DNA from: Alphaproteobacteria bacterium
Lineage (GTDB): Bacteria > Pseudomonadota > Alphaproteobacteria > MPNO01
Assembly: GCA_965205995.1 (NCBI GenBank)
Contig: OZ242200.1
Span: forward strand, 2,073,071 to 2,137,070
Length of the DNA: 64,000 bases
Reading direction: 5' to 3'
Shown: positions 13,878 through 42,676 of the stretch, piece by piece
Position numbering within the stretch: the first letter of the stretch is position 1
How the letters are laid out: every line of letters begins with the position of its first letter
Position numbers and translations under genes: made by a program
Notes under the pieces: generated by a model
What the model saw: the letters and a program-made list of their open reading frames with translations, nothing else
What the model was told of the DNA's origin: nothing
Database searches by the model: none

Positions 13878-13952
13878 GCGCCGCACCCGCCGTCGGCCAG
13901 GCGGCGCCTTCGCTCCCGCCACGATCGACCGCCCTAGCGAAAGGGATTCCGC

Positions 13953-15170: not shown

Positions 15171-15186
15171 GCGGATGGGGGGCGCG

Positions 15187-15300
15187 TCCTTCGATACGGC
15201 GCTTCGCGCCTACTCGGGATGAGGTGTTGTTTTTGGCCCCTCACCCCAACCCCTCACCCCAAGTAGCCCCCGAAGGGGGCGTATCGAAGGGCGGCCTAGG
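15187..15300. repeat. palindromic intergenic repeat, copy A (arms ccttcgatacggcgcttcgcgcctactcgggatgagg / cctcaccccaagtagcccccgaagggggcgtatcgaagg)
   Basis: Same about 37-bp arm recurs at 30026 and 42677 with an inverted partner about 10-20 nt away. Confidence 0.85.
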
Positions 15301-19816: not shown

Positions 19817-19853
19817 GATACCCGTAACATTGCGTTCCCTTGGGAGGGACTCC

Positions 19854-20654
19854 ATGGAACAGCGGACACTACGCCGGATACTTTCGACCGTCCTCGTCGC
19901 CGCGCCGGTCGCTTTCGCCGCGCCGGTCGCCGGGGCCGCCCCGCAGGTGCTGGCGCTGTTCTCGACCGACCGGCCGGTCGCGCTCGCCTGCGCGGGCGGG
20001 ACCTGCCGCGCCGAGTTGCCGACGCTCTGCCTCCAGCCGGGACGGCGCGCGCCGCAGCCCGGCCGGTCCTACCGCCTGGCCGAAGGGCAGTCGCTCACCC
20101 TCGTCGGGCGCACTACCGGCCGGGAGACCGTGTCGATCGCGCTCGGCGGGGAGACGGCCGTCGCCGCCGCCCGCACCCATGTCGCAATGGAGGTGTCGAT
20201 CCCGCGCGCGCTCCTCGACCGCCACGGGCTGGAAGATGCGGCCATCGCCGTCGGCGATAACGTCTCCGCCATCCCGCTGGCCTCAGCGGAGGATGCGCGC
20301 CCGCAGACCGCCGGCGAGATCGCCCGGGCGGCGGGCGAAAGCCGGCGCCTGGCGACCGCGATCGTCGACCGCGATCCCGACCGGATGCCGGCGGTGCGGC
20401 TGATGACCCGGATCTCCAACGCGCCTGGTCCCGGGAACAACGACGCCGCGTGGGCGTCGATGGTTTCCGAAGCGAAGGAGGACGGGGTCTCCGCCGCCGC
20501 CATCGGCTTCGCGCGGTTCAGCTACGACCTCTGCAAGTTCAAGACCGCGAACCGCATCGTCGCCTCGTTCAGGCAATGCCTGCGCGGGCTGAGCGACGAT
20601 TCGATGGAATTCCTGAACGCCGACCTCGAACCGGCGCTCGGTTCGGGCAGCTAG
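19854..20654 (+). CDS. secreted hypothetical protein (signal peptide LSTVLVAAPVAFAAPVAGAAP), no recognisable family
   Basis: GGGAGGG SD 6 nt before ATG 19854, unbiased composition, several Cys (CAGGTC..C). Confidence 0.55.
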   Translation: MEQRTLRRILSTVLVAAPVAFAAPVAGAAPQVLALFSTDRPVALACAGGTCRAELPTLCLQPGRRAPQPGRSYRLAEGQSLTLVGRTTGRETVSIALGGETAVAAARTHVAMEVSIPRALLDRHGLEDAAIAVGDNVSAIPLASAEDARPQTAGEIARAAGESRRLATAIVDRDPDRMPAVRLMTRISNAPGPGNNDAAWASMVSEAKEDGVSAAAIGFARFSYDLCKFKTANRIVASFRQCLRGLSDDSMEFLNADLEPALGSGS

Positions 20655-21981
20655 GGCCGCCCCAGCGGCAAAGGCTGCTCGCCGAGCATCGCGCTGACGA
20701 CGACTTCGCGCACGCGCCCGGCGTCGAGCCCGTATTCTGCGATCATGTCGGCGCTGTCGGCGAGGATGGTGTCCGCGTCCTGCATGATCTTCAGCCGCTT
20801 GAACAGATCGGGGCGGGCGAGCCCCATGCTCTCTCCCACCAGCTCCATGAAATTGACCACCTCGAAGGGCCAGTCGCGCTCATGGGTGCAGAGCTCGCGG
20901 TGGCAGGCGTGGTAGATCCCGGCCAGCGCGTCGATTCCGGCCGCCTCCGCCGCCGCGAGCTGTTCGGCATGCACGTCCCGCTTGTAGTCGGGCAGCACCG
21001 AGAGGGTGTTGCACATATATCCGACGCGCGGCTGCGCGAGGTCCACGAATTCGAGCCCCGGGATCGCCCGCAAGACGGTCTCGGCGGCTTCCGCGATGCC
21101 GGCGACGCCGGGATGCTCGTGCAGCCCGACCCGCTTCTCGACCCGCCGCGTCATCAGCGGGCGCAGATCGTCGAGCCTGGATTCGAGCCAGAGCACGAAG
21201 GGGGTGAGATCGAAGGGCGAATCCCCGGCCTCCGCATGGGTCTCAAGCGCGGCTTCGCCGAGATGGACCTGGCAGCTCGGGCACCAGGACAGCACCTCGT
21301 CGACGCCGCTCTCGGCGAAGCGGTCGATGGTGCGCCCCGACAGATCGGCGAATTTTTCCAGATCGCCGGCGCGGAACTGGTAGACGCCGCAGCAATAGCT
21401 CGGCCCGCCGCGGACCACGTATCGAACCCCGAGCGCGTCCATCACGTCGAGGCAGAGGAGCGCGATATGCGGCGTCTTGAGGACGTTGCAGCCGGTATAG
21501 AAGACGGTCTCCGGGTTCTCCGGCTCGGGCGCGAGCGCATCGATCTGGCCCAGCCGCGCCAGCAGGTCGGGGGCGAGCTGGAGACGGGTGAGCGTTTGTA
21601 CGCCCTTGCTCATGGCGCCGAACTGCCGGCCGCCGCCGGTGCGCAAATCCCCGGGCGGGCTGGAGCTTTGAAGATCCGCGATGCGGGCAAGCGCCAGCAT
21701 GAAGCGCGGGTTGACGCCGTACTCGCAGGCCGGGATGCAGTGCCCGCTGCCGGTGCAGATCTCGGCCCAGCGGCGGGCCGTGTCCGGCCCCTCGCCGGTC
21801 CGGATCATCTCGATCACCCCGGCCGCCACCGATTCGGCGTCCGAAACGTCGAGCCCCGCAGGCCCCGGCATCGGGCAGACTTTCACGCATGCGCCGCATT
21901 TGGTGCAGGCATCGAGAATGCCGTCACGCCGCGCATCGAGCGCGGCGAAGAAATCCTGCGACCTGTCTGAACCGTCGGGCA
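20651..21981 (-). CDS. Fe-S oxidoreductase with 4Fe-4S dicluster and CCG domains (HdrD/GlpC-like)
   Basis: CTKCGACVKVCP and CIPACEYGVNP ferredoxin-type motifs followed by Cys-rich CCG repeats (YTGCNVL.., SYCCGV..., WCPSCQVH). Start taken at MPDGSD; the upstream part of the called ORF looks non-coding. Confidence 0.75.
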
Positions 21982-22028
21982 TGGGATCGAGATATCCAGT
22001 GTTCGACCGCCGAAGCCTAGAGGATAAC

Positions 22029-22045
22029 CGGTTCGGGCGGAACCG
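22029..22045. promoter_or_regulatory. inverted repeat CGGTTC-N5-GAACCG in the divergent promoter region between the Fe-S gene and the Rieske oxygenase operon
   Basis: Read directly. Candidate operator for a dimeric regulator. Confidence 0.3.
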
Positions 22046-22280
22046 TTCTCTCCCTCCGCCTCCCTTCGTCATATCGACCGGAGCCGCGCGGAGCGCGGCG
22101 GAGCGGAGATATTTGCCCGGCACAATGGCGCAACACCTGGGCTGGCAGATTTCTCCGCTTCGCTTCGCTCCGGTCGAAATGACGGTTGGGATCGGTGGCG
22201 ACCGGTCCCTCATCACGCCGCTGTCGACGCCGCGTCCGAAGCTGTGAAAATATAGGGTCCCCAATCGGGACGAACCTGGC

Positions 22281-23528
22281 ATGGCCGAAACCAAAACTCT
22301 CGTCGACTGGCCGGAGGAGGGCGTGGCGCGGGCGCCCTATGCGGTGTTCTCCGATCCGGCGATCTACGCGGCCGAGATGCGGCGCATCTTCCGTGGGCCG
22401 GTCTGGCACTATCTCGGCCTCGAAGCGGAGCTGCCGGAGCCCGGCTGCTACCGGCTGATCGATGTCGGCGACACGCCGGTGATCGTGCTCAGGAACCCGG
22501 ATGGCGGGATCAACGCGCTGGTCAACCGCTGCGCCCATAAGGGGACGATGCTGCTGTTCGAGCCCTTCGGCCGGGTCGAGCGGCTGATGTGCATCTATCA
22601 CAACTGGCGCTACGACCTCGACGGCTGCCTCAAGAGCGTGCCCTTCGCCAAGGGCATCAACGGCAAGGGCGGCATGCCGGGCTCGTTCAGGATGGAAGCG
22701 AACGGGCTGGACCGGCTGCGCGTCGAAAGCCTGGGCGGCATAATCTTCGGCACGTTCTCGGACGCCACGCCGCCGCTCGCCGCCTATATCGGCGACCGGC
22801 TGATGGCGAACTATCGCCGCATGACCGCCCGCCCCTTCAAGGTGCTCGGCTATTACAGCCAGTACCTCGATTCCAACTGGAAGCTCTATTTCGAGAACTC
22901 GAGCGATCCCTACCACGCGACGATCCTGCATGCCTGGGCGACGCGGTTGAAGCTCAACCGCTTCACCATGGAAGGCGCGATCGAGATGAGCGAGCAGGGC
23001 TGGCATCATCTGAGCTGGTCGAAGATGGCGACCGACCGGAACGGAGAAGTATACGAGACCGAGGCGTTCCGCAGCGGCGGCGGGGAATTCGATTCGTTCG
23101 GGCTCAACGACCCCTCGGTGATCGAGCAATGGGACGAGTTCGGCGACGGCATCACGACGGCGATCCAGACCGCCTTCCCCAATTTCGTCCTGCAGCAGAT
23201 CCACAACACCATCGCCACCCGCTATCTGGTGCCGCGCGGACCGGCGGGCTCGGAACTCGTCTGGACCGTGCTCGGCTACGCGGACGACGATGACCGGCAG
23301 ACCCGGATCCGGCTCAAGCAGGGCAATCTGATCGGGCCGGCGGGCTATATCTCGCTCGAGGACGGGATGGTCGGCGGGCTGGTGCAGAAGGGGATCGAAG
23401 GCGACAAGGACAAGTCCTCGGTGATGGAGATGGCCGGCCGGTCGGTCGAGACGATCGTCAACAGCCGCGCCTCCGAATGCGGCGTGCGCGGCTTCTGGAC
23501 CGCCTATCGCGCGCTGATGGGGGTCTGA
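22281..23528 (+). CDS. Rieske non-heme iron ring-hydroxylating oxygenase, alpha subunit
   Basis: CAHKG...CIYHNW Rieske motif, followed by catalytic domain. Confidence 0.9.
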   Translation: MAETKTLVDWPEEGVARAPYAVFSDPAIYAAEMRRIFRGPVWHYLGLEAELPEPGCYRLIDVGDTPVIVLRNPDGGINALVNRCAHKGTMLLFEPFGRVERLMCIYHNWRYDLDGCLKSVPFAKGINGKGGMPGSFRMEANGLDRLRVESLGGIIFGTFSDATPPLAAYIGDRLMANYRRMTARPFKVLGYYSQYLDSNWKLYFENSSDPYHATILHAWATRLKLNRFTMEGAIEMSEQGWHHLSWSKMATDRNGEVYETEAFRSGGGEFDSFGLNDPSVIEQWDEFGDGITTAIQTAFPNFVLQQIHNTIATRYLVPRGPAGSELVWTVLGYADDDDRQTRIRLKQGNLIGPAGYISLEDGMVGGLVQKGIEGDKDKSSVMEMAGRSVETIVNSRASECGVRGFWTAYRALMGV

Positions 23529-24016
23529 TGGCGACCCTGGTCGCGGATTCGGCGCATGTACCGGCGGCTATCGCCGCGCTGATGACCGAATATGTCCACG
23601 CGATCGACGACGACCGGCTGGAGGACTGGCCGGGTTTCTTCACCGATCCCTGCCTCTACCGGATCGCCACGCGCGACAACGAGGAACGCGGCCTGCCCGC
23701 CTCGCTCGTATTTTGCGACACCCGGGCGATGCTGCTCGACCGGGTGGTTTCGGTGCGCCATGCCAATGTGTTCGAGCCGCACCGCTACCGCCACATGGTG
23801 AGCGCGATCCGGGTCCTCGCATCCGACGGCGCGGAATACCGGGTGCAGTCGAACTATCTGGTGACCCGGACGATGCGCGACGGAACGATGGCTGTGTTCT
23901 CGACCGGCGCGTATCGGGACGTTATCGTGGTGGCCGAAGAAGGCGCTTTGTTCCGGGAACGCGTCGTCGTCTGCGACCACGGAATGATCAACAACCTGAT
24001 CGCGATCCCGATTTGA
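23528..24016 (+). CDS. ring-hydroxylating oxygenase beta subunit (SnoaL-like fold)
   Basis: 162 aa, ATG overlapping the alpha stop, with DDRLEDWPGFFTD..Y motif typical of RHO beta subunits. Confidence 0.8.
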   Translation: MATLVADSAHVPAAIAALMTEYVHAIDDDRLEDWPGFFTDPCLYRIATRDNEERGLPASLVFCDTRAMLLDRVVSVRHANVFEPHRYRHMVSAIRVLASDGAEYRVQSNYLVTRTMRDGTMAVFSTGAYRDVIVVAEEGALFRERVVVCDHGMINNLIAIPI

Positions 24017-24044
24017 GCGTGGACCGCCGGGTACGGAGGAAGAC

Positions 24045-25379
24045 ATGCGCAAGCATTTGATCTGCGGGACGCTGTTCGACGGTCTCGACGAGACCGCGAA
24101 AACCGACCAGACGATCGTCATCGACGACGACCGGATCGCCTATGCGGGGCCGTCCGCCGGGGCGCCGGACCAGAAGCCGGGCGAGCCGGTGATCGACCAC
24201 AGCGCCGAGTTTGCGATGCCGGGGCTGATCGACATCCACGTCCATCTGAGCTACGGCGACGCCCAGGCGAACGAGGACATCGACATCTATTCGCCGCCCG
24301 AATACCGGGCGCTGCGCGCGCTGCGGGCGGCGCAGACGGTGCTGAAGGCGGGCTACACCTCGATCGCCGACCCGGCCTCGACCGGGCGCACCACGGTGGG
24401 CGTCCGCGACGCGATCAACTCGGGCATGTTCGAGGGGCCGCGCATCACCACCTCGGGACGCCAGATCACCGCGCGCCAGGGGCTCGCCGACTGGTATCCG
24501 ACCTGGGTCGGCGTCCCGGAAAGCTCGGTCGGGGTGCTGGTGCGCAATACCGACGAGGCGATCGAAGAGATCCGCATGCAGGTCAAGGACCGGGTCGATT
24601 TCGTCAAGATCGCGCTCGACGGGCTGCACCGGAAGGATTCGGACGGCGAGCTGATGGCCTGCTTCAACCAGCGCGAGATGGACGCGATGGTCGAGGAGAG
24701 CCACCGCCTCGGGCGCAAGGTGATCGTCCATGCGCGCGGGCGGGAGGCGGTGCTGACCTCGGCCCGGGCCGGGGTCGACGTGATCTTCCACGCCTTCGAG
24801 ATGGACGACGAAGGGCTGGATGCGGTGCTGGAGAGCGGCGCGATCCTGTCGCCCGCGCTCACCTTCGTCGCCAACACGGTCGAGTTCACCCGGCCGTCCG
24901 ACCCCTGCTTCAAGTGGCGGCCGACCCAGAACCGGCGCGTCATCGACGATGCCTGCGAGATGCTGATCAAGGCGCGCGAGCGGGGCGTGCCCTTCATGGT
25001 GGGGACCGATTCGGGCTTCGCGATCACGCCCTACGGGGAGTGGCACGCCAAGGAGCTGGAGCTCATGGTCGACGAACTCGGCTTCACCCCGGGCGAGGCC
25101 CTCAAGGCGACGACCAGCGGCAATTCGGCGCTGCTGCGCGAGAGGGACGAGGTCGGCCGCCTGGGCCAGGGCGCCTATGCCGATATCACGGTGGTGGCGG
25201 GCGATCCGCTCAAGGACATCGCGGTGCTGCAGAACCGCGAGGCCATCCGGGCGGTCTATCGCGGCGGCGAGCCGGTCGACCTCACGCCGGAGCCGCGCGC
25301 GGCCGGCTATCAGTGGGAATACTCGTATCGGCAGTGGAACGACATCTACACGCGGGAGCGTGTCGCCGATCTCAACTGA
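24045..25379 (+). CDS. metal-dependent amidohydrolase (imidazolonepropionase/prolidase-like subgroup)
   Basis: GLIDIHVHLSYGD metal-binding motif, 444 aa. Confidence 0.85.
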   Translation: MRKHLICGTLFDGLDETAKTDQTIVIDDDRIAYAGPSAGAPDQKPGEPVIDHSAEFAMPGLIDIHVHLSYGDAQANEDIDIYSPPEYRALRALRAAQTVLKAGYTSIADPASTGRTTVGVRDAINSGMFEGPRITTSGRQITARQGLADWYPTWVGVPESSVGVLVRNTDEAIEEIRMQVKDRVDFVKIALDGLHRKDSDGELMACFNQREMDAMVEESHRLGRKVIVHARGREAVLTSARAGVDVIFHAFEMDDEGLDAVLESGAILSPALTFVANTVEFTRPSDPCFKWRPTQNRRVIDDACEMLIKARERGVPFMVGTDSGFAITPYGEWHAKELELMVDELGFTPGEALKATTSGNSALLRERDEVGRLGQGAYADITVVAGDPLKDIAVLQNREAIRAVYRGGEPVDLTPEPRAAGYQWEYSYRQWNDIYTRERVADLN

Positions 25380-27715
25380 TTCGCGGGCGTAACATCGAAC
25401 CGTTCAGGACAATCGGCCGGCCGGTCCGGCGCAAGGAAGATTCGCGCCTGCTCACCGGAAGGGGCCGCTTCAGCGACGACTTCGCCCTGCCCGGCCAGAC
25501 CCACGCGGCGATGGTTCGTTCGCCCCATCCCCACGCCCGGATCCTCTCGGTGGACAAGACGGCGGCCCTGGCCCTGCCCGGCGTTCTCGCCGTCTTCACG
25601 GGCGCCGACTGCGCGGCCGACGGGCTCCGCCCGCTCGACCACAGCCCGCTGCCGAAAACCCGGTTCGACCTCAAGCTGCACGGCCCCGGCGGCGGCGAGG
25701 TCTTCGTCGGCGACCATGCGCTGCTGCCGCTCGACAGGGTGCGCCATGTCGGCGAAGCCGTCGCCATGGCGGTCGCCGAGACCAGGGGCGCCGCGCAGGA
25801 TGCGGCTGAGGCGGTAGTCGTCGACTACGAGGAGCTGCCGGCGGTCACCGAGACCGCGGCCGCCGCCCGCCCAGGCGCACCGCTGATCTGGGACGACCGG
25901 CCGGACAATATCCTGGTCGAAACCTTCTTCGGCGACGAGGCCGGCACCGACGCCGCCTTCGCCGCGGCGACGCATGTCGTCGGCCGCCGTTTCGTCATCC
26001 CGCGGGTGACCGGCTGCCCGCTGGAGCCGCGCTCGGCGCTGGCCCAATACGATCCGGAGACCGGGCGCTACACCATCCATGCCGGCAGCGGCAGCGCGGT
26101 CCGCCAGAAGCGCGAGATCGCCGCCGTGCTGGGGGTGGAACCGGACCGGGTGCGCATCCACGCCTACGATGTCGGCGGCAATTTCGGCACCCGCAACCGC
26201 TGCTATGTCGAGTTCCCGCTGGCCGCCTGGTCATCGCGCAGGCTGGGGCGGCCGGTCAAGTGCACGGTCGAGCGCGGCGAAGCTTTGGTCAGCGACTACC
26301 AGGGCCGCGACCTGGTCACCGAGGTGACGCTGGCGTTCGACGCGGACGGCGCGATCCTCGGCCTGCGGGCGGAGAATCTGAGCAATGCCGGCGCGCGCTG
26401 CGTCTCGCTGTCGCCGCTGTCGAAGGGCTCGGGGATCGTCACCGGCTCCTACCGCGTGCCGGTCGCCTGGCTGCGGTCGCGCGCGACGTTTTCCAACACC
26501 CCGCCGACCAACGCCTATCGCAGCTCGGGCCGCCCGGAGTGCATCTTCGCCATCGAGCGGCTGATCGAGACCGCCGCGGAAGAGCTCGGGATCGACGCGG
26601 TCGAGCTGCGGCGCAGGAACCTGGTCGCACCGGAAGAGATGCCCTATTGCAACGCGGTCGGCGTGACCTATGACAGCGGCGAGTACGAAAAGAGCCTGGA
26701 CATGGCGCTCGGCCTCTCCGACCCGGACGGTTTCGGCGCGCGGAGGGAGGAGGCCGAGGCCCGCGGGCGGCTGCTGGGCCGGGGCGTCGCCCATTATGTC
26801 GAATCCTCGGTCGGCACGCCGGTGGAGCAGGCGCGCATGCGCGTCTTCGGCCAGGACCGCCGGGTCGATGTGGTGATCGGCACCCAGCCGAGCGGCCAGG
26901 GCCACGAGACCAGCTTCGCCCAGGTCGCCGCCGAACGCCTCGGCCTTCCGGTCGAGGATATCCGGATCGTCATGGGCGATACCGACATCGTGAAAATCGG
27001 CGGCGGGTCGCATTCGGGCCGCTCGATGCGGATGGCGGGAACCGTGATCGTCATGGCCGTCGATGCGTTGATCGAAGACGCGAAGCCAATTGCCGCCGGG
27101 CTCCTGGAAGCGGCGGAAATCGACATCGACTTCGCCGACGGCCGGTTCTCGGTCGCCGGCACCGACCGCGAAGCGACGCTCTACGAGGTCGCCGGGGCGG
27201 CCGAGGGAGGCGAGCTCCGCATCGTCGCCGATAACGAGATGCACACCCCGGTCTTTCCCAACGGATGCCATGTCTGCGAGCTGGAGCTCGATCCCGACAC
27301 CGGCACGATCGACATCGTCCGCTACGCGGCCGTGGACGATGTCGGCCGGGCGATCAACCCGCTGATCGTCGACGGGCAGACGCATGGCGGCATTGTCCAG
27401 GGGGTCGGCCAGGCCATGTGGGAGGTCTGCGTCAACGACCCCGAAAGCCAGCAGCCGCTCGCCGGCTCGTTCATGGACTACGCCCTGCCGCGCGCCGACC
27501 GGCTCCCGTTCTTCGCGACCGCGCTCAACGAAGTCCCCTCGCCCACCAACCCGCTCGGAATCAAGGCCGGCGGCGAGGGCGGCACCACCCCCGCGCTCGC
27601 GGTGATCGTCAACGCGATCCTCGACGCGCTCAAGCCGTTCGGCGTCGCCGACCTCACCATGCCGGCGACGCCGTTCCGGGTGTGGAGCGCGATCCGCGCC
27701 GCGCGGGGCGGTTAA
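25379..27715 (+). CDS. xanthine dehydrogenase / CoxL-family molybdopterin-binding subunit (molybdenum hydroxylase large subunit); start codon uncertain
   Basis: Conserved N-terminus GRPVRRKEDSRLLTGRGRF begins immediately at the upstream TGA, where only CTG/ATT are available as starts. AYRSSGRPE and GGGFG-type motifs. No CoxM/CoxS-type partner genes adjacent. Confidence 0.85.
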   Translation: MRGRNIEPFRTIGRPVRRKEDSRLLTGRGRFSDDFALPGQTHAAMVRSPHPHARILSVDKTAALALPGVLAVFTGADCAADGLRPLDHSPLPKTRFDLKLHGPGGGEVFVGDHALLPLDRVRHVGEAVAMAVAETRGAAQDAAEAVVVDYEELPAVTETAAAARPGAPLIWDDRPDNILVETFFGDEAGTDAAFAAATHVVGRRFVIPRVTGCPLEPRSALAQYDPETGRYTIHAGSGSAVRQKREIAAVLGVEPDRVRIHAYDVGGNFGTRNRCYVEFPLAAWSSRRLGRPVKCTVERGEALVSDYQGRDLVTEVTLAFDADGAILGLRAENLSNAGARCVSLSPLSKGSGIVTGSYRVPVAWLRSRATFSNTPPTNAYRSSGRPECIFAIERLIETAAEELGIDAVELRRRNLVAPEEMPYCNAVGVTYDSGEYEKSLDMALGLSDPDGFGARREEAEARGRLLGRGVAHYVESSVGTPVEQARMRVFGQDRRVDVVIGTQPSGQGHETSFAQVAAERLGLPVEDIRIVMGDTDIVKIGGGSHSGRSMRMAGTVIVMAVDALIEDAKPIAAGLLEAAEIDIDFADGRFSVAGTDREATLYEVAGAAEGGELRIVADNEMHTPVFPNGCHVCELELDPDTGTIDIVRYAAVDDVGRAINPLIVDGQTHGGIVQGVGQAMWEVCVNDPESQQPLAGSFMDYALPRADRLPFFATALNEVPSPTNPLGIKAGGEGGTTPALAVIVNAILDALKPFGVADLTMPATPFRVWSAIRAARGG

Positions 27716-27783
27716 ATGGGTTGGAATCGGGCGGCCGCGCGTGTAACGGTCCAACCCATCGTCGAAGCCAGGGGGACAAAACC

Positions 27784-29979
27784 GTGCTGTTCCGATCCCG
27801 GTCGGCCGATCGACCGTTCCATTTCGGCCTCTTTCCGCTGGAGACGCTGCCGCGCGACGAGTCGCTGATCGACGCGGAGGCGGAGCGCCCTCCGGCCGGC
27901 GCCCCGGTGCGCGAGCGGAGCGAGGGCCAGTTCGTCGATGCGCTCGACAAGTTCACCCGGCTCTACGCCGAGTTCGCCGACGCCGATGCGGCGAAGGAGA
28001 AGGCGCCGGTCTCGGACGACCTCGAACGTCGCTCGGTCGACATCAAGGGGGTCGGCTATTTCATGGACGCGAGCCAGGTCGGCATCTGCCGGATCCCGGA
28101 CAATGCCTGGCTCGCCGGCGCCGAGCGCTGCGACCACGATCATGCGATCGTCATCCTCGTCGAGCATTCGCGCGTCGCCGAGGAAGGCAATCTCGCCCGC
28201 GACTGGATGCTTCCGGCGGTCGCCGCCAACGCGGAAATGCGCGCGGCCGAGATCGCCGCCCTGATCGCCGGCCACATCCGGGTCATGGGCCATGGCGCAT
28301 ACATGCACGGCATGGACAAGGAACGCCTCGATGCCGGGCGCCTCGCGGTGCTCGCCGGGCTCGCTATCCGCCAGGGGGAGCGTATCGTCAACCCGTTCGT
28401 CGGCGAGGCGTTTTCGCTCTGCGTGGTCTCGACCGACTACCCACTCGCCGTCGACAAGCCGCTGGCGGCGGGGGCGGTCGGCGCGTCCCGGGGATTCGGC
28501 TACTGGCTCGGGCGCAACGGCGCCCGCTCCGGGCGCGAGCGCAACCGGCGCGCCAGGCGGCGCACCGATCTCGGCCCGTTCGCGATGGAGACCGTCAAGC
28601 GCGTCGACCGGCCGACCACGCTGATCCTCGACGAAGAGGTGCCGCGCGTGCCCAAGCGCGCCGCCTTCTTCGAACGCGCGTTGCAGGGCGATCTCGGGGT
28701 CAAGGCGCAGATGGCGCGGCGGATCTTCTCCTTCAAGCACCCGCTCTCGCTCAGCCAGCTCAAGGTCATCCGCAAGATGGTGCCTTACCAGGACGGTCCG
28801 GTCGCCGAAATCGACAGCGGGCGCTTCGGCGACGCCGAGGCCAATACCAGGGCGCTCAAATCGCTCGCCTATTTCCTCGGCACCGACATCGCCGGCGTGT
28901 GCGAGGTGCCGCGCTATGCCTGGTATTCGCACAAGGAGAACGGCGAGCCGATCGAGCCCTATCACAAATACGCCGTGGTGATGCTGATCGACCAGGGCTT
29001 CGACACGATGGAAGGGGCGAGCGGCGACGACTGGATTTCCGGCGCCCAGTCGATGCGCGCCTATCTCCGGGGGGCGGAGATCGCCTCGGTGATGGCCGAG
29101 CTTCTGCGCGTCAACGGGTTTCCGTCGCGGTCGCAGACCAACGCCGACAGCGACGTGCTGCACATCCCGCTGGTCCTCTGGGCCGGGCTGGGCGAGCTGT
29201 CGCGGATCGGCGAGCTCATCCTCAACCCGTTTCTCGGGCCCCGGCTCAAGACCGTGGTCATGACCACCGACATGCCGCTGGTGCCGGACAAGCCGATCGA
29301 TTTCGGCCTCCAGTATTTCTGCAGCAATTGTTTCAAATGCGCCCGCGAATGCCCCTGCGACGCGATCCCTCTGGGCGACAAGGTGATGTTCAACGGCTAC
29401 GAGATCTGGAAGCCGGATGTCGAACGCTGCACCCGCTACAGGCTCACCAACGTCAAGGGCTCGGCCTGCGGGCGCTGCATGAAGACCTGCCCGCTCAACA
29501 AGGTGGTGGACGCGGACGGCCCGCTGATGACCCGGATGGCGAGCTGGCTCGGCATCAACGCGATGTTCCTCAAACCGCTGATGGTGCCGGTCGCGGCATG
29601 GCTCGACGACGCGCTCGGCAACGGCACGCGCAACCCGCTCAAGAAATGGTGGTTCGACCACGAGGTGGTCGACGGCGTAACCACCGTGCCGAAGGCCACC
29701 AACCAACGGGACATCGACCCGTCGCGCAGTATCGACCCGGCGAAACAGAAGATGGCCTATTACCACGCCAACATGATGCCGCCGCCGGACTCGTCGGAAC
29801 CCTTCGCGGTCGACCGCAAGCAGGCCCTGGCGGCGAAGGACGCGATCGAGACCCCGGCCGAGGCGCGGGCGCGGCTCGCCAACGGCGCCCACACGCCCGG
29901 GCACTACATCCCGACCCCGCCCGCCGGCGCCGCCGATGCGGAGAAGGAGCTGGTCGCGAGCCCCTATGCGAAGGATTAG
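27784..29979 (+). CDS. reductive dehalogenase-like protein (cobalamin-dependent, soluble 'catabolic' RdhA class) with two [4Fe-4S] motifs and a long C-terminal extension
   Basis: CSNCFKCARECP (CxxCxxCxxxCP) followed by C-x12-CGRCMKTCP, the truncated second-cluster arrangement typical of RdhA/QueG. About 730 aa, no TAT signal, no adjacent RdhB anchor. GTG start with AGGGGGA SD. Confidence 0.6.
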   Translation: MLFRSRSADRPFHFGLFPLETLPRDESLIDAEAERPPAGAPVRERSEGQFVDALDKFTRLYAEFADADAAKEKAPVSDDLERRSVDIKGVGYFMDASQVGICRIPDNAWLAGAERCDHDHAIVILVEHSRVAEEGNLARDWMLPAVAANAEMRAAEIAALIAGHIRVMGHGAYMHGMDKERLDAGRLAVLAGLAIRQGERIVNPFVGEAFSLCVVSTDYPLAVDKPLAAGAVGASRGFGYWLGRNGARSGRERNRRARRRTDLGPFAMETVKRVDRPTTLILDEEVPRVPKRAAFFERALQGDLGVKAQMARRIFSFKHPLSLSQLKVIRKMVPYQDGPVAEIDSGRFGDAEANTRALKSLAYFLGTDIAGVCEVPRYAWYSHKENGEPIEPYHKYAVVMLIDQGFDTMEGASGDDWISGAQSMRAYLRGAEIASVMAELLRVNGFPSRSQTNADSDVLHIPLVLWAGLGELSRIGELILNPFLGPRLKTVVMTTDMPLVPDKPIDFGLQYFCSNCFKCARECPCDAIPLGDKVMFNGYEIWKPDVERCTRYRLTNVKGSACGRCMKTCPLNKVVDADGPLMTRMASWLGINAMFLKPLMVPVAAWLDDALGNGTRNPLKKWWFDHEVVDGVTTVPKATNQRDIDPSRSIDPAKQKMAYYHANMMPPPDSSEPFAVDRKQALAAKDAIETPAEARARLANGAHTPGHYIPTPPAGAADAEKELVASPYAKD

Positions 29980-30025
29980 GGCGTGTCCGTTTTGGATGGA
30001 ACCGCTGCGGCGGCTGAAGCACGCC

Positions 30026-30107
30026 CCTTCGATACGGCGCTTCGCGCCTACTCAGGGTGAGGGATTTTTTCCTCATCCCGAGTAGGCCCGAAGGGCCGTA
30101 TCGAGGG
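30026..30107. repeat. palindromic intergenic repeat, copy B (37-bp arms separated by gatttttt), 47 bp downstream of the RdhA-like stop
   Basis: Arms ccttcgatacggcgcttcgcgcctactcagggtgagg / cctcatcccgagtaggcccgaagggccgtatcgaggg read directly. Can form a long hairpin and may double as a terminator. Confidence 0.85.
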
Positions 30108-30172
30108 ACGGCCCGCCGCCACGTTTCCATCCAACACGGATAGGCTCTAGGCCCCTCGCCGCGGCCCGCGCC

Positions 30173-31006
30173 ATGCCTCTCGTCGACTGCGACGGCCGCA
30201 GGGTGAGCTACGAGGCCGGCGGACCGGCGGACGGCGCCGCGCCGCTTCTTGTGCTCCAGCCGCCCGGCGCCAGCGGCGCGGCGATCTGGCGGCCCATCGC
30301 GGCGGCGTTGCAGGACCGGTTCCGCATTGCCGCGGTCAACCCCTCGGCCTATGGCGATACCGAGGCCTTTGCCGGCCCGGCGCCGATGACGATCCGGGAC
30401 GAGGCGGCGGCGACCGCCGCCGCGATCCGCGCCGAGTTGCCGGAAGGCGGCAGGGCGCGCGCCCATATCGTCGGCCATTCCTATGGCGGCACGATCGCGC
30501 TGGTGCTGGCCCTCGATTGGCCGGGGTTGGTGGACCGGCTGACCCTGCTCGAGCCCGCGCCCTACAAGCTGCTGCGCGAGGCCGGCGAGACCGCTTTTGC
30601 CGAGGAGATCGGCGCGCGCAACCGGGATTTCATCGAGACCGTGCGCGCCGGCGGGCTCAACGACGCGGCGATGGAAGACTATCTCGATTATTTCAATGAC
30701 CGACCGGGATACTGGCGGAGCCTGGACGAGGAGACGCGGACCCGGATGCTGGCCTTGGCGGAGCGCCTGGCCGTCGGGCTCGACGCGGTGCGGCGGCTGA
30801 AAATGCGCCGCGCCGACCTCGCCGCGATCTCGGTCCCGGTCACCGTGATCCGGGGCGGCGCGACCGATCCGCTGCACGCGAGGCTGTCCGAACTGGTCGC
30901 CGGGGCGATCCCGGGCGCCGCGCTCACCGACCTGCCGGGCGCCGGCCACATGATGACCCTGACCCACGGCCCGGCGATCGCCGAGATGCTGCGAAGAATA
31001 GCGTAG
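30173..31006 (+). CDS. alpha/beta-fold hydrolase
   Basis: GHSYGG nucleophile elbow, 277 aa. Confidence 0.8.
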   Translation: MPLVDCDGRRVSYEAGGPADGAAPLLVLQPPGASGAAIWRPIAAALQDRFRIAAVNPSAYGDTEAFAGPAPMTIRDEAAATAAAIRAELPEGGRARAHIVGHSYGGTIALVLALDWPGLVDRLTLLEPAPYKLLREAGETAFAEEIGARNRDFIETVRAGGLNDAAMEDYLDYFNDRPGYWRSLDEETRTRMLALAERLAVGLDAVRRLKMRRADLAAISVPVTVIRGGATDPLHARLSELVAGAIPGAALTDLPGAGHMMTLTHGPAIAEMLRRIA

Positions 31007-31014: not shown

Positions 31015-32247
31015 TCACCCGCCGGAGGAACCCCGCCGCGGCGCCATGAAGGGGAGCGCGCAGAAAAAGCTCAGCAATGCCATCGAACCCATCGTCAGGA
31101 AGGCGAACCCCCAGGCGTTCGAGCCGCCCAGCGGCGCGGCCAGATCGAGGACCAGCCCCACCAGCGCCGGCGCGAACAGGGATCCGCTGAACCCGAATAT
31201 CGAGTGCACCGCGAGCGTCGCGCCGCGATGGCCCACCGGAGACGTCGCGACCGCGCCGGCGGTCAGCGCCGCCGAATCTGCCTGGATCGCGGCGGAATAG
31301 AGCAGACACAGGAAAGCCGCGATGGCGAAGGGGAGCGTGGAGGAAAACCCGGTTGCGACGCCTATCCCGAAGGTCCCCAGCATGACCCAGGCGATCAGGC
31401 GCGCACGCCCGACGCGCATTGCGATTTCCGCGCCGGCGATGCTGGAAACCACCGAGACGAGGGCGAACAGGGTGGCAAAGAGCGTGGCGTCGAGCTCGAA
31501 CGAGGCGCCGCTGCCGAGGCAGAACACCAGGAACGGGACGATCCAGGAGCGCATGGCGAACAGCTCGGCCCCGTGGCCGGCATAGGCGACGATGTAGCCC
31601 ATCGTCTCGCGCGAGCGCAGAACCGGACGGAAGTCCAGCATATGGCTGCGTTCTTCGGCGGCCGCTTCGGGCGACCGCGGCACGATTGCCGCCGCCAGGA
31701 GAAGAGCGGACAGCGCCGGCCCCGCGGCCGTGAACAGAAACGCGCCGCGCCATCCAAACCACTCCAGGGCAACGCCCGCGAGCGAATAGGAGAGCGCGGT
31801 GCCGACGCTGAAGCTCGCGGTATAAAATGCGACCGCCCGCGCGTGTCGGGCCTGCGGCAGCCGGTCGGTGAGCATCTTGAGGCCCGGCATGTAGCTGCCC
31901 GCGAGACCGGCGCCGGCGATCACGCGCCACGGCAAGGCGGACCAGAACCCGTTCGCGAAGAGCGCCAACCCCGCCAGGCCGAAGGCGGAGAGCATCGCAC
32001 CCAGAATGACGATATGGCGGGCATCGACCCGGTCGGTCATCGCGGAAAGAAACGGGACCGCGAGGACATAGCCGCCGAAAAACGCACCGGACAGCCAGCC
32101 GGCCATGGCGTTGCTCATATGCCAGGCGGGCTGCAGCACCGGCAGCAGCGACCAATACGCCGCGAAACCGGCCATCGTCAGCACTTCGGCCAGGCACACC
32201 ACGGCGATCAGGGTCGACGGGCGTCGCAAGGCGGTGGGGGCGGTCAC
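31015..32247 (-). CDS. MFS transporter
   Basis: 12 predicted hydrophobic segments. GTG start at 32247 chosen to avoid overlap with the upstream thioesterase gene. Confidence 0.75.
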   Translation of the reverse strand: MTAPTALRRPSTLIAVVCLAEVLTMAGFAAYWSLLPVLQPAWHMSNAMAGWLSGAFFGGYVLAVPFLSAMTDRVDARHIVILGAMLSAFGLAGLALFANGFWSALPWRVIAGAGLAGSYMPGLKMLTDRLPQARHARAVAFYTASFSVGTALSYSLAGVALEWFGWRGAFLFTAAGPALSALLLAAAIVPRSPEAAAEERSHMLDFRPVLRSRETMGYIVAYAGHGAELFAMRSWIVPFLVFCLGSGASFELDATLFATLFALVSVVSSIAGAEIAMRVGRARLIAWVMLGTFGIGVATGFSSTLPFAIAAFLCLLYSAAIQADSAALTAGAVATSPVGHRGATLAVHSIFGFSGSLFAPALVGLVLDLAAPLGGSNAWGFAFLTMGSMALLSFFCALPFMAPRRGSSGG

Positions 32248-32264
32248 CGCATCGAAGGGGCGCC

Positions 32265-32696
32265 TCAACCCCTCGCCCGCCAGACCCGCGCGGTGCCGCT
32301 GGCCGTGGCGAGCACCGCACCCTCGGGATCCAGCAATCGGCCTTCCATGAAGCAGATCGTCTTGCCGGCGCGCACCGGCCAGCCTTCGCCGATCAGCCGG
32401 CCGGGCCTGGCGGGGGCAAGAAAGGTGGTCTTCATTTCGAGCGTCGGCACGCGGTAGTCGGGGCCGATCCTGGCGAGCGCGGCGAACGACATCGCCATGT
32501 CGAGCATGGCCGACACCATGCCGCCCTGGAGCACGCCGAGCATGTTGCAGAACTCGTCTCTCCCCTCGAAATCGATCTTGAACACGCCGCTGGCGGCATC
32601 GCAGGCGATGACTTGCGCGCCGAGGAGAGCCGTGACCGGCGTCTCCTCGAACAGGCGCTGCACCCAAAGCGGGTATTCTTCCGGCAAGGCGTCCAT
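32265..32696 (-). CDS. PaaI/hotdog-fold thioesterase
   Basis: 143 aa whose pattern (GVLQGGMVSAMLDMAMSFAA) is typical of thioesterase-superfamily proteins. Confidence 0.7.
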   Translation of the reverse strand: MDALPEEYPLWVQRLFEETPVTALLGAQVIACDAASGVFKIDFEGRDEFCNMLGVLQGGMVSAMLDMAMSFAALARIGPDYRVPTLEMKTTFLAPARPGRLIGEGWPVRAGKTICFMEGRLLDPEGAVLATASGTARVWRARG

Positions 32697-34397: not shown

Positions 34398-35784
34398 GCT
34401 GCCGACAATCGCGGCGGCCGCGCGCGGCTTCCGCGACGGCACGCTGTCGCCGGTCGATCTCACCGCGCTCTGCCTGGAGCGCATCGGACGCTACGACCGC
34501 CACCTCCACGCCTACCACGCGGTGTTTGCCGACGAGGCGATGGCGGCGGCGCGGGCGGCCGAGGACGCGCTCGGCCGGGGCGACGATCTCGGCCCGCTGC
34601 ACGGCATCCCGATCGCGCTCAAGGACGTCTTCTACTGGCGGGGCAAGAAGACCAGCTCGAACTCGCGCGTCATGCTCGACTTCGAGGCCGGCGAGGACGC
34701 GGGCGTCATTACCCGGCTCAAGGCGGCCGGCGCGGTTCTCCTCGGCCAGCTCAACACCTACGAGTTCACCTTCGGCGGCAGGCCGTCGACCGAGCCGCCC
34801 TTCCCGCCGGCGCTGAACCCGTGGAATACCGGGCGGATCACCGGCGGGTCGTCGAGCGGGTCGGGAGCGGCGGTCGCCGCCGGGCTCTGCCTCGGCGCGC
34901 TCGGCACCGATGCCGGGGGCTCGATCCGGCTGCCGGCGGCGTTCTGCGGCATCGCCGGGCTGAAACCCACCATCGGCCGGGTCAGCGCCTATGGCGATAT
35001 GCCGCTCACCTATTCCTTCGACTGCGTGGGGCCGATGGCGTGGACCAGCGAGGACGCCGCGATCATGCTCCAGGCGCTGGCCGGCCACGACCCGCGCGAC
35101 ACGATGAGCGCGGATGTCGCGGTGCCCGACTACGTCGCCGGGCTGGAAGACGGCGTGAAGGGGCTGAGGGTCGGGCTGATCCGGCATTTCTACACCGCCG
35201 ATTTCGCATCGCCTCCGGAGATCGTCGCCGCAATTGACGGGGTGGCGGAGACCCTCGCCGGGCTGGGCGCCGAAATGGAGGAAGTATCGGTCTCGCCGCT
35301 GGTCGACTGGCATGCGGTGGGGCGCGTCCTGGTGCCGGCCGAGGCCTTCGCGATCCACGAGGAACGGCTGCAAACCCGCTGGGACGACTATGGGCGGCTC
35401 GCGCGCAACCGGCTGATGCTCGGGAGCCTGTTCCGCGCCGTCGATTACATCCAGGCGCAGCGTCGGCGGACCGAGCTGCTGGCCGAGCTCGAAGCGGTGC
35501 TCGCGCGCTGCGATATCGTGGTCACCACCGGCACGCTGACCCCGACGCCGCCGCTCGACGACACCGAACCCTTCCCCTTCATCGACGTGCCGACCATCGG
35601 CATTCCGTTCAACCTGACCGCCCATCCCTGCCATGCAATTCGGGCGGGCTTCTTCGCGGACGGGATGCCGATCGGCGCGCAGATTGCCGGGCGGCACTGG
35701 GACGAGGCGACGGTGCTGCGGGCGGCGCACGCGTTCGAGCGCGCCGCCGGCCTCCTCGACCGGAGACCGCCGCTCGACGGTTGA
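34387..35784 (+). CDS. amidase-signature family amidase (AtzE/GatA-like)
   Basis: GGSSSGSGAAVAAGL and GTDAGGSIRLPAAFCGIAGLKPT signature, 465 aa. Confidence 0.9.
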   Translation: MTAELPTIAAAARGFRDGTLSPVDLTALCLERIGRYDRHLHAYHAVFADEAMAAARAAEDALGRGDDLGPLHGIPIALKDVFYWRGKKTSSNSRVMLDFEAGEDAGVITRLKAAGAVLLGQLNTYEFTFGGRPSTEPPFPPALNPWNTGRITGGSSSGSGAAVAAGLCLGALGTDAGGSIRLPAAFCGIAGLKPTIGRVSAYGDMPLTYSFDCVGPMAWTSEDAAIMLQALAGHDPRDTMSADVAVPDYVAGLEDGVKGLRVGLIRHFYTADFASPPEIVAAIDGVAETLAGLGAEMEEVSVSPLVDWHAVGRVLVPAEAFAIHEERLQTRWDDYGRLARNRLMLGSLFRAVDYIQAQRRRTELLAELEAVLARCDIVVTTGTLTPTPPLDDTEPFPFIDVPTIGIPFNLTAHPCHAIRAGFFADGMPIGAQIAGRHWDEATVLRAAHAFERAAGLLDRRPPLDG

Positions 35785-35803
35785 GGCCGCCGGGCGGCCC
35801 GGC

Positions 35804-36208
35804 TCAGGCGAAAACCAGGCTGATTTCGGGGATCAGGATCAGCAGCACGGTGACCGCCAGCATGACCACGGCGAATGGCGCCGCGCCGAGAAAAATCTGG
35901 TTCAGCGTGATCCGCTCGTCGTCCAGCGTGGATTTGACGACATAGCAGGTTATGCCGAGCGGCGGCGTCAACAAGCCAATCTCGACCGCGATGACCGTCA
36001 CGATTCCGAACCAGACCGGATCGCCGCCGAACTGGAACAGCACCGGCAAAGCGAGCGGCAGGACGATGAGCATGATGGATATGGAATCGAGAATCATGCC
36101 AAGCAGAATCAGGAGAACCAGGTAGAGCGCGATAAACCCCGCGAAACCCAATCCGGTGGAGCCGATGAACTCCCCCGTCTGCTGCGGCAGCCCCGACAAT
36201 GCCAGCAT
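35804..36208 (-). pseudogene. C-terminal remnant (about 150 aa) of a TRAP DctM large permease
   Basis: Matches only the last third of the intact DctM copies at 12570..13877 and 40794..42107 (..DPVWFGIVTVIAVEIGLLTPPLG..). The frame upstream switches into DctP sequence at about 36270..36300. Confidence 0.75.
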
Positions 36209-36269
36209 TCGGGCATAGACATTGGCGGCGAGGATCAGGAACAGGATCGAGACCGTGATATGGCCGGTC

Positions 36270-37240
36270 GCCGGCGACGTTGGGCACCCGACCCATGGAC
36301 TGGGCCCAGTTCTTCCGTTCGGCTTCCGGCAGCGTGCTGACGATCGCCCCCTGCTTGGTCATCAGGCCGAGGAACTTCTCGGCGTTCTTGGCAACGATCC
36401 CGCCCTGGACCCGCGCGTATTCCTTGCCAAGATCGGTGAAAATGTCGCGGATATAGGCCGGCAGGGAGTTCCACGTGTCCTTGTTCATCGTGAGCCCGCC
36501 GGAAATCGGCCCGCCCATGTCGACCACCGTGATGAATTTACCGACCTCGTGCAGCTTGAACGGGAACATGCCGGTGGTGATCGTGATGCCGCCATCGGCG
36601 ATACCCGTCTTCACCCCGTTGTAGTAGACCGTGAGACCGCCATTGATCCCGACGGCTCCGGTTCCTTTCAGCCAGCCGGCTGAAGCGCCCGGGGCGTAGA
36701 TTTTCCTGCCCTTGAGGTCAGCGAGCGATTTCACCGGAAACTTGGTGAAAATATTGTAGGTATCGGCCACCTGAATGCCGAGCATGACCTGGTTGTACTT
36801 GTCCCAGGACGCGTTCAGGGCCGGAACCTTCTCGTGCAATTCCTCGCCGATCTCGATCAGCGCCTTCACGTCCCCGGTCGCAAACGGCGTATAGAAGGTC
36901 ACGTTCATCAGCGGCATCTTGACCGGCTCCCAGAGGGTGCCGACCCAGCCGATATCGGCGAGACCCTTCTCTACCCCTTCGAGCGTGTTCTTGAAGTTGT
37001 AGAGCGCCCCGGCATAGGCCTCGGTCCATTGGATGGTATCGCCCTTTCCCGCCGCGGCGACCCGTTTCGCCGCCTCCGGAACCACCAGATTCTTGATGGT
37101 TGCGACCCATGGCACGATGGGCGGATGGCTCGATCCGGCCGTGAGCTTCTACACTTTCGCCGAAATCGGCGAGGACATGAGCATGGCCGCGCCGAGAGCG
37201 GCGATCGCACACAGGCAAGCGGATTTCCTCGTTACAAATT
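36270..37240 (-). pseudogene. TRAP DctP-family solute-binding protein gene inactivated by an in-frame TAG (37149..37151), a likely start-codon loss (GTA at 37233..37235 after a GGAAAGGGA SD) and a 3' deletion fusing it to the dctM remnant
   Basis: Signal peptide TRKSACLCAIAALGAAMLMSSPISAKV, then TAG, then in-frame DctP body (KLTAGSSHPPIVPWVATIKN...LPEAERKNWAQSM) read directly. Confidence 0.7.
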
Positions 37241-38229: not shown

Positions 38230-38802
38230 TCAGCCCTGGTTGAGCCCGGGCCGCCACAGCACATCCGCCGTCCCCCCCGCATTGGCCTCGCGCGCCAGCA
38301 CGAAGAGGAGGTCGGAGAGCCGGTTGAGGTAGGTGAGCGCGTTCGGGTTCACCGGCTCCCCGGCGGCCACCGCCCAGGCCGAGCGTTCGGCCCGCCGCGC
38401 CACCGTGCAGGCATGGTGGAGATGGGCCGCCGCGCTCGTGCCGCCGCGCAGCACGAAGGATTTCAGCGGATCGAGGTCGGCCGAGATCGCATCGATTTCG
38501 CGCTCCAGCCGCGCGACCTGCGCGGCGTCAATGCGGAGCGCCTTGCCTTCGTCCCCGGAACCGTCGCCCGGCGTCGAGATGTCGGCGCCCAGATCGAACA
38601 TGTCGTTCTGGATGCGGGCGAGGATCGCATCCGCCTCGCCGTCGCCGGCGTGCAGCCGCGCGAGCCCGATCGCCGCATTGGCCTCGTCGATGTCGCCGAT
38701 GGCGGCGGTGCGCGCGCCGTGCTTGCCGATCCGGGTGCCGTCGGAGAGCGATGTCTGACCGCGGTCGCCGCCGCCGGTATAGATTCGGTCGAGCTTGACC
38801 AT
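38230..38802 (-). CDS. PduO-type ATP:cob(I)alamin adenosyltransferase
   Basis: 190 aa; N-terminal IYTGGGDRGQTSL..GTRIGKH..R..AIGDIDEANAAIG is the hallmark of PduO/MMAB-type corrinoid adenosyltransferases. Confidence 0.85.
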   Translation of the reverse strand: MVKLDRIYTGGGDRGQTSLSDGTRIGKHGARTAAIGDIDEANAAIGLARLHAGDGEADAILARIQNDMFDLGADISTPGDGSGDEGKALRIDAAQVARLEREIDAISADLDPLKSFVLRGGTSAAAHLHHACTVARRAERSAWAVAAGEPVNPNALTYLNRLSDLLFVLAREANAGGTADVLWRPGLNQG

Positions 38803-38827
38803 TGCGCCTCCCCGGAGAAGCCCGGGC

Positions 38828-42658: not shown

Positions 42659-42676
42659 CGTCTACACTCTCGACCC

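Follow-up and report, generated by a model that had tools for sequence, protein, structure and literature searches.

The gene considered here lies on the plus strand, at positions 27784-29979, of a 64,000-nucleotide stretch of alphaproteobacterial DNA (contig OZ242200.1, positions 2,073,071 to 2,137,070; hereafter the window). The product is very probably a soluble, cytoplasmic and monomeric reductive dehalogenase of the catabolic, non-respiratory type, dependent on cobalamin and two [4Fe-4S] clusters and belonging to the NpRdhA-like 'truncated' clade. The gene is intact and ordinary, and is an uncharacterised new member of the known class of catabolic RdhAs. It has the domain order, the catalytic and cluster residues and the fold of this family, is under purifying selection, and is devoid of a twin-arginine translocation (Tat) signal, an RdhB partner and a fused reductase. 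Cofactor loading, reaction, substrate class, electron donor and oxygen tolerance are predicted below by analogy with the characterised relatives. An earlier note, made from the nucleotide sequence alone, had already proposed the soluble catabolic type, and the full-length similarity and the fold described below bear this out.

The rdhA gene is a single open reading frame (ORF) of 731 amino acids, with a GTG start at 27784 and a TAG stop ending at 29979. The position of the start matches that of the orthologues (GTG; ATG in L003, one of the homologous loci compared) as well as the consensus N-terminus of the family. Compared with five orthologues of 85-97 % protein identity, the ratio of nonsynonymous to synonymous substitution rates (dN/dS) is 0.16-0.20 (approximately 0.17), and therefore rdhA is a real gene under purifying selection. 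The gene and its putative ribosome-binding site are as follows.

27770-27775, plus strand: Shine-Dalgarno-like AGGGGG, 8 nucleotides 5' of the GTG start, read from the sequence.
27784-29979, plus strand: rdhA-type coding sequence, 731 amino acids, very probably a catabolic 'truncated', reductase-less reductive dehalogenase (ORF, 4RAS/6ZXU homology, TIGR02486, AlphaFold2 model, dN/dS).

The closest match in a sequence search of the Protein Data Bank is NpRdhA (4RAS), which is collinear with the window protein from residue 7 to 704 (chain residues 6-699) at an E-value of 1.2e-194. A second NpRdhA entry, 6ZXU, was also matched over its full length (E 1e-194), and the overall identity of the two proteins is 46-48 %. 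The NCBIfam model of the reductive dehalogenases, TIGR02486 (RDH), was passed with 183.7 bits against a cut-off of 160.35. An AlphaFold2 model was calculated from 50 homologues (predicted template modelling score 0.86; mean predicted local distance difference test, pLDDT, 78) and compared by Foldseek with NpRdhA (6ZXX/4RAS), giving template modelling (TM) scores of 0.87 when normalised to the query and 0.91 when normalised to the target, over approximately 711 columns and with a probability of 1.00. Domain identity and superposition of the fold were used in place of the published list of cobalamin contacts.

The protein is composed of five segments, which follow each other from the N-terminus to the C-terminus.

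27970-28467, plus strand: vestigial duplicate of the cobalamin-binding domain, residues 63-228 (hhalign against the core columns).
28468-28782, plus strand: linker or lid, residues 229-333, with the pocket residues F295, R312, F315 and S316 (NpRdhA F290, K307, F310 and P311; MAFFT alignment with NpRdhA).
28783-29301, plus strand: functional cobalamin-binding core, residues 334-506, with G420, S423, M424, Y427 and K489 (58 % identity to the NpRdhA core, where the equivalents are A419, S422, M423, Y426 and K488).
29320-29493, plus strand: two [4Fe-4S] motifs, residues 513-570, CxxCxxCxxxCP followed by C-x12-CxxCxxxCP (pattern positions).
29494-29976, plus strand: C-terminal extension, residues 571-731, common to NpRdhA (aligned to residue 704; 44 % identity).

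Identity to NpRdhA is unevenly spread over these segments, from 39 % in the vestigial domain and 44 % in the C-terminal extension to 58 % in the cobalamin core and 76 % in the Fe-S segment. The duplication was detected by a profile-profile comparison of the family-alignment columns for residues 60-260 with those for residues 330-512, in which hhalign aligned residues 63-228 to residues 334-506 over 166 columns (99.8 % probability, E 1.9e-27, 31 % identity). At the positions of the catalytic Tyr and Lys the N-terminal copy has Glu and Ser, in keeping with a vestigial domain. A duplicated N-terminal cobalamin domain is the defining feature of the catabolic RdhAs (PMC10463259). The first Fe-S motif, CSNCFKCARECP, occupies residues 513-524, and the second, CTRYRLTNVKGSACGRCMKTCP (C-x12-CGRCMKTCP), residues 549-570; the cluster cysteines are C513, C516, C519, C523, C549, C562, C565 and C569, and the catalytic R553 lies between the motifs. 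In the C-terminal extension, a clade-specific and moderately hydrophobic helix pair at about 581-610 (model helices 581-592 and 594-610) is eight residues longer than its counterpart in NpRdhA.

Most of what the earlier note had read from the letters agrees with this architecture. The two Fe-S motifs that it reported begin at residues 513 and 549, and the cobalamin-binding core, whose absence it had named as a reason to abandon the assignment, is present. The domain of roughly 190 amino acids that it placed after the motifs is in fact 161 residues long, and it made no mention of the 512 residues that precede them, the diagnostic duplicated domain included. It had further stated that no Tat signal and no adjoining RdhB occur, and both statements stand. 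Neither an RR pair nor a Tat consensus is found within residues 1-60, and the N-terminus aligns with that of NpRdhA. No 19-residue segment of the protein reaches a transmembrane level of hydrophobicity, the maximum Kyte-Doolittle value being 1.48 at residue 589. No rdhB gene adjoins rdhA; the flanking genes end at 27715 and begin at 30173, and the intergenic gaps of 68 nucleotides upstream and 193 nucleotides downstream leave no room for one.

The catabolic RdhAs are divided into a reductase-fused and a 'truncated' clade (PMC10463259). Searching of Pfam with the window protein revealed only ferredoxin-type matches (Fer4_7, E 2e-5) and no FMN, NAD or 2Fe-2S domain; no further module follows that of RdhA. 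Its length of 731 amino acids and the lack of these domains therefore place it in the reductase-less clade.

The residues of the active site are conserved. In the MAFFT alignment, Y427, K489, R553, S423, M424, F295 and F315 of the window protein correspond to Y426, K488, R552, S422, M423, F290 and F310, which are listed among the pocket residues of NpRdhA (PMC7565698). Among 116 close homologues Y427, K489, R553, S423 and M424 are invariant, and thus the Tyr/Lys/Arg triad, which the earlier note had wished to see checked, is retained. G420 is replaced by Ser in one homologue. The first five cluster cysteines are likewise found in all 116, and C562, C565 and C569 in 115. In a second set of 68 full-length relatives, which are encoded by species-representative genomes and have 47-89 % identity, the complete set of Ser, Met, Tyr, Lys and Arg occurs in 65.

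Two full-length RdhA homologues without the catalytic residues were noticed in a betaproteobacterial metagenome-assembled genome (MAG) and a Gallionella MAG (L023 7545-9692 and L028 391-2541). One of them has Tyr to His and Arg to Gln exchanges, and the other Tyr to Cys, Arg to Gln and Ser to Ala; these proteins may carry out a different chemistry or may be inactive.

From the substrate complexes of NpRdhA, a mechanism can be proposed by homology. A phenol halogenated ortho to the hydroxyl would bind over base-off cob(II)alamin. Its halogen would act as a ligand of the cobalt, and its phenolic oxygen would be hydrogen-bonded by S423, K489 and R553. A ferredoxin or flavodoxin with a gene of its own would deliver electrons one by one to the two [4Fe-4S] clusters and thence to the cobalt, NAD(P)H being the ultimate source. 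The carbon-halogen bond would then break, Y427 would protonate the carbon, and halide and the dehalogenated phenol would be released. The vestigial N-terminal domain is predicted to pack on the active domain, replacing the second subunit of the respiratory dimers. The product would enter aromatic catabolism and not respiration, a role that fits the many oxygenases, hydrolases and transporters encoded around the gene.

Several observations weigh against this assignment or limit how far it can be taken. The enzyme nearest to the window protein and its subclade (at least 64 % identity within the subclade) that has been characterised is only 46-48 % identical. The AlphaFold2 model is of low confidence in the lid helix at 292-315, in the loop at 407-417 before the active-site helix and in the second Fe-S region at 536-560, which rules out a contact-level check of the predicted cobalamin binding; in a cofactor-free model such low pLDDT stretches may reflect the missing cofactors. 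Three pocket positions are unlike those of NpRdhA (K307 to R312, P311 to S316 and A419 to G420), so that the enzyme may have another specificity for its substrate. Pfam, run on approximately 50 ORFs of the window, detected neither a ferredoxin or flavodoxin nor an NAD(P)H-ferredoxin reductase, a PDOR-like gene was not found there either, and no conserved cluster of small Cys-rich, ferredoxin-like ORFs occurs beside 80 homologous loci. Furthermore, the neighbouring genes are conserved among very close relatives only, and are variable even there, so that the context is of little help for the substrate.

With respect to the pocket, it is NpRdhA and not the window protein that is the outlier, because the 68 relatives largely share the residues of the window type. 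The position of NpRdhA 419 is Gly in all 68, that of 307 is Arg in 59 and Val in eight with one gapped, and that of 311 is Ser or Ala in all except this gapped one. In NpRdhA, K307 forms a salt bridge with the carboxylate of a benzoate (PMC7565698). A cation kept at the pocket entrance as R312 would fit an anionic substrate, for example a hydroxybenzoate or hydroxyphenylacetate that carries halogen. When A419 of NpRdhA is exchanged for Met (A419M), the preference shifts to a mono-halogenated substrate (PMC7565698). A Gly at this place would enlarge the niche of the second, non-ligating halogen, and G420 might therefore be compatible with di-halogenated substrates or with bulkier substituents.

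With respect to the electron supply, all well-coded ORFs of the window were scanned for the cysteine motifs of ferredoxins and Rieske proteins, and 4Fe-4S signatures were found only in RdhA and in a CCG/Fer4 protein at 20651-22336; apart from RdhA, this protein and the Rieske oxygenase alpha subunits are the only Fe-S proteins encoded. Genes for a ferredoxin oxidoreductase and a ferredoxin have been reported beside NpRdhA 'in some cases' and are not class-defining. The electrons would probably come from a general cellular ferredoxin or flavodoxin.

The window as a whole is a catabolic neighbourhood, with three Rieske oxygenase alpha subunits, several amidohydrolases, two amidases, two acyl-CoA ligases, transporters of the tripartite ATP-independent periplasmic (TRAP) type and of the major facilitator superfamily (MFS), and short-chain dehydrogenases. 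The genes next to rdhA are as follows.

22248-27715, plus strand: Rieske oxygenase alpha and beta subunits, an Amidohydro_1 enzyme and a Mo-binding large subunit of the xanthine-dehydrogenase family (Pfam, NCBIfam).
30173-31006, plus strand: alpha/beta hydrolase, 277 amino acids (Pfam Abhydrolase_6/_1).
31015-32268, minus strand: MFS transporter (Pfam MFS_1; gene calls on the identical public contig L082).
32265-32696, minus strand: hotdog thioesterase (Pfam 4HBT; gene calls on L082).

Outside the closest relatives, L001-L004 and L081-L083, the upstream gene order is not preserved. The hydrolase gene follows rdhA after 15-19 nucleotides in L001 and L002 and is missing in L004 and L081, and the Mo-hydroxylase is truncated in L081 and L083 while rdhA is intact. 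No family of flanking ORFs is common to more than 12 of the 81 loci, the commonest being the MFS transporter (12/81). Because the neighbours vary or vanish in relatives in which rdhA stays full-length, rdhA is retained independently of them. The MFS transporter adjoining the rdhA region is weakly similar to aromatic-acid symporters, and both this transporter and R312 fit an anionic halophenol as the substrate. A scan from 21.5 to 32.8 kb returned no promoter-like sites, and seven terminator-like sites against 5.6 expected.

Several further features of this neighbourhood were recorded. The Mo-binding large subunit (xanthine-dehydrogenase/CoxL-type, approximately 25391-27715, plus strand) has no gene for a small 2Fe-2S or a medium FAD subunit in the window, and it is reduced to 131 amino acids in L081 (9537-9932) and to 521 in L083 (3647-5212). 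The absence of the partner subunits from the window and the shortening in close relatives suggest an orphan gene in decay. L002 (approximately 6900-10000) and L003 (approximately 6800-10000) carry, in contrast to the window, a TRAP block of about 3.1 kb with DctM and DctQ, which separates the Mo-hydroxylase gene from rdhA and is encoded on the other strand. A gene for a PduO-type ATP:cob(I)alamin adenosyltransferase is located among short-chain dehydrogenase genes at 38230-38835 on the minus strand, 8 kb downstream of rdhA, and occurs in L081 too. As this is a corrinoid adenosyltransferase gene, the organism handles cobalamin; a link between it and the dehalogenase was not established, and no cobalamin riboswitch was found in the window.

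Among the other explanations, the one that survives best retains the fold and the cofactors and assigns another substrate, such as a halogenated heterocycle or a halotyrosine-derived amide, or a reduction that involves no halogen, in one pathway with the upstream oxygenase, amidohydrolase and Mo-hydroxylase. This would account for the near uniformity of the K307R, P311S/A and A419G exchanges in the family, Gly419 without exception. It would also account for the close spacing and common strand of rdhA with the genes for Rieske alpha and beta, Amidohydro_1, Mo-hydroxylase and hydrolase, for the two amidases nearby and for the short distance to the hydrolase gene in L001 and L002. We regard it as unlikely, since the residues that bind the phenolic hydroxyl and donate the proton (S423, K489, R553 and Y427) are invariant and the characterised catabolic RdhAs all act on ortho-halophenols (PMC10463259). 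As for a common pathway, the neighbours are unconserved beyond the closest relatives, and the truncation of the Mo-hydroxylase and the loss of the hydrolase have left rdhA intact.

That the gene is an inactive relic, orphaned from its redox partner, is very improbable. The window lacks a partner ferredoxin or reductase, the neighbouring genes are decaying in relatives and a palindrome has been inserted directly downstream, all of which might be expected of a relic; yet the ORF is intact, the catalytic and cluster residues are all kept, the dN/dS range given above includes the comparison with a 97 %-identical relative, and full-length orthologues have been retained while neighbours were lost.

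An epoxyqueuosine reductase acting on tRNA (QueG) has hardly any probability left. The class-III fold and the truncated second Fe-S motif are shared with QueG, weak matches were obtained (5D08, marginal at E 0.0045; TIGR00276, E 5e-4), and some database homologues are automatically named 'epoxyqueuosine reductase QueG'. However, the QueG equivalog model TIGR00276 gave 19.2 bits against a cut-off of 200, the TM score to QueG is approximately 0.2 against 0.87 for NpRdhA, and the window protein is about twice as long, with a duplicated domain and the RdhA Tyr/Lys/Arg triad. The alignment to both families, which had been suggested as the deciding comparison, thus favours NpRdhA and rules out a QueG orthologue. 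A respiratory RdhA, as the terminal reductase of organohalide respiration, is just as remote and is ruled out on its defining features: the core and Fe-S homology to PceA is real (4UQU, E 4e-25, residues 461-623 only; 8Q4H, E 2e-19), but it is confined within residues 395-623 with a TM score of approximately 0.3, there is neither a Tat signal nor an adjoining rdhB, and the vestigial N-terminal domain, which substitutes for dimerisation in catabolic enzymes, is present.

The catabolic reductive dehalogenase is thus the reading preferred here, and the next question is how common such enzymes are. The exact protein is already public in NCBI and ENA, unnamed, on four contigs, the longest of 4.6 Mb, and its nearest named relatives (approximately 89 % identity) are each a 'hypothetical protein' of Defluviicoccus sp. 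MAGs (Rhodospirillales). The literature on Defluviicoccus, sponges and dehalogenases offered no usable link, although the names of several related MAGs look as if they might denote bins from sponge microbiomes. Searching by word index gave 2954 clusters of proteins with E <= 1e-10, of which the best 120 are all at least 64 % identical and nearly all about 730 amino acids long; 118 of these have 709-832 amino acids, the exceptions being a partial protein of 549 (P0043) and a singleton read-through of 1105 (P0004). In a pattern search with one genome per species, 584 of the first 600 matches code for a relative, so that at least 584 such stretches occur, and the taxa of the matches listed comprise Alpha-, Beta- and Gammaproteobacteria and one Gemmatimonadota MAG. 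When the N-terminal 330 residues, which are specific to the class, were compared with representatives at 50 % identity, 480 clusters were found at E <= 1e-3, and 72 remained when the threshold was tightened to E <= 1e-30. Some few matches have the length expected for reductase-fused enzymes (approximately 1040-1090 amino acids) and are distant, at 33-37 % identity. The earlier note had described such enzymes as rare, which does not hold, because relatives occur in the genomes of hundreds of species: the catabolic RdhA class is moderately diverse, environmentally widespread and not rare.

The read-through protein P0004 (L083 5453-8770, 1105 amino acids) deserves a remark of its own. On this long-read contig the gene call joins RdhA to the alpha/beta hydrolase behind it, giving one ORF, and the normal RdhA C-terminus is followed by a stop codon in another frame. 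A genuine fusion is less likely than a frameshift or sequencing error.

A 2026 survey lists BhbA, NpRdhA, JtRdhA and two shorter enzymes of Roseobacter and Pararhodobacter as characterised catabolic enzymes, and as far as could be told none of them falls within the subclade of the window protein. A wider interpretation, which we offer tentatively, is that the window protein represents a large, uncharacterised and reductase-less subfamily, recognisable by at least 64 % identity, by R312, S or A316 and G420, by the helix pair at about 581-610 and by the lack of a dedicated redox-partner gene. In soils, in waters and in communities associated with hosts, its members might turn over brominated or iodinated phenolics of natural origin, with a specificity and an electron supply possibly unlike those of NpRdhA. 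In the Defluviicoccus-like lineage, the enzyme may share an operon with the Rieske oxygenase, the amidohydrolase and the alpha/beta hydrolase, acting on a halogenated aromatic amide or acid.

Directly 3' of rdhA lies a repeat that is absent in L001 and L002, where the gap measures 15-19 nucleotides.

29978-30150, no strand assigned: near-perfect palindromic insert of about 170 nucleotides between rdhA and the alpha/beta-hydrolase gene (minimum free energy -132 kcal/mol, z -12.5).

Its core of about 40 nucleotides, CCTTCGATACGGCGCTTCGCGCCTACTCRGGRTGAGG, recurs in the window at 15185-15224 and 42675-42719 and in relatives (L003 12310-12351 and 14475-14581; L081 4656-4857 and 14312-14355; L083 5255-5296). 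No Rfam family was matched at its gathering score, and the sub-threshold matches were generic hairpins only. The palindrome looks like a dispersed element resembling a repetitive extragenic palindrome (REP) or a miniature inverted-repeat transposable element (MITE), and not like a part of the enzyme.

Elsewhere in the window, selA (53665-55146), selB (55143-57080) and a tRNA-Sec (57142-57237, plus strand; anticodon TCA, Rfam 75.7 bits) form a cluster, from which it follows that the organism makes selenoproteins. A peptide transporter of the SbmA/BacA family (13938-15170, plus strand; NF008306, 573 bits against a cut-off of 492) adjoins a TRAP operon at 10971-13877. The region 35445-37115 on the minus strand shows a dip in GC content to 0.635 and a DctP-like N-terminus that runs out of frame, and at 35804-36208 a 134-amino-acid piece resembles the C-terminal end of the TRAP permease DctM. 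Assigned by eye from the translations, these TRAP fragments look like pseudogene remnants. The 3' end of the region of rpoD, the primary sigma-factor gene (2790-5147, plus strand), is overlapped by an ORF for an IS110-family transposase (5056-6087, minus strand; Pfam Transposase_20). Another well-coded ORF of approximately 290 amino acids (19779-20654, plus strand; GC content at third codon positions 0.87) lies between the acyl-CoA ligase and the CCG/Fe-S genes and has no Pfam match; at the corresponding position L081 carries a gene of 267 amino acids (3823-4626), also without Pfam domains.

The catabolic RdhAs are tractable, soluble and oxygen-tolerant kin of the respiratory enzymes and are wanted for the bioremediation of brominated and iodinated aromatics, and only a handful has been characterised. 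The present gene is nothing new in kind; it belongs to the numerically dominant, uncharacterised branch of the reductase-less clade. Its interest lies in this unstudied branch, in a pocket signature unlike that of the crystallised enzyme and in the lack of a dedicated redox partner nearby. Characterisation of one member would reveal the actual function of most enzymes of the class in the environment, and would address the electron donor of the truncated enzymes, given that no conserved partner gene stands alongside.

Among the known systems, NpRdhA of Nitratireductor pacificus pht-3B (4RAS, 6ZXU, 6ZXX, 6ZY0 and 6ZY1) is the most similar. With approximately 700 against 731 amino acids, it shares with the window protein the vestigial domain, the cobalamin core, the two [4Fe-4S] clusters and the C-terminal extension in the same order, and both are without Tat signal, RdhB and fused reductase. 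The differences are the level of identity, the three pocket residues and the helix pair, which is longer and more hydrophobic in the window protein. BhbA of Comamonas sp. 7D-2 and JtRdhA of Jhaorihella thermophila are of the same class, with no Tat signal, a duplicated domain, two [4Fe-4S] clusters and the Tyr/Lys/Arg triad, and serve in the catabolism of ortho-halophenolics as carbon sources (PMC10463259). Unlike the window protein, which stops after the RdhA module and would need separate redox partners, these two are self-sufficient. PceA of Sulfurospirillum multivorans (4UQU) and the reductive dehalogenase complex 8Q4H have a homologous cobalamin core, the Fe-S module and the catalytic Tyr, whereas the respiratory RdhAs are exported by Tat, anchored or partnered by RdhB, dimeric and without the vestigial domain. 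Lastly, QueG (5D08 and 5D6S) shares the class-III cobalamin fold and the full and truncated ferredoxin-type motifs, but it acts on tRNA, and its solved chains are of approximately 370-440 amino acids (437 in 5D08) in contrast to the 731 of the window protein.

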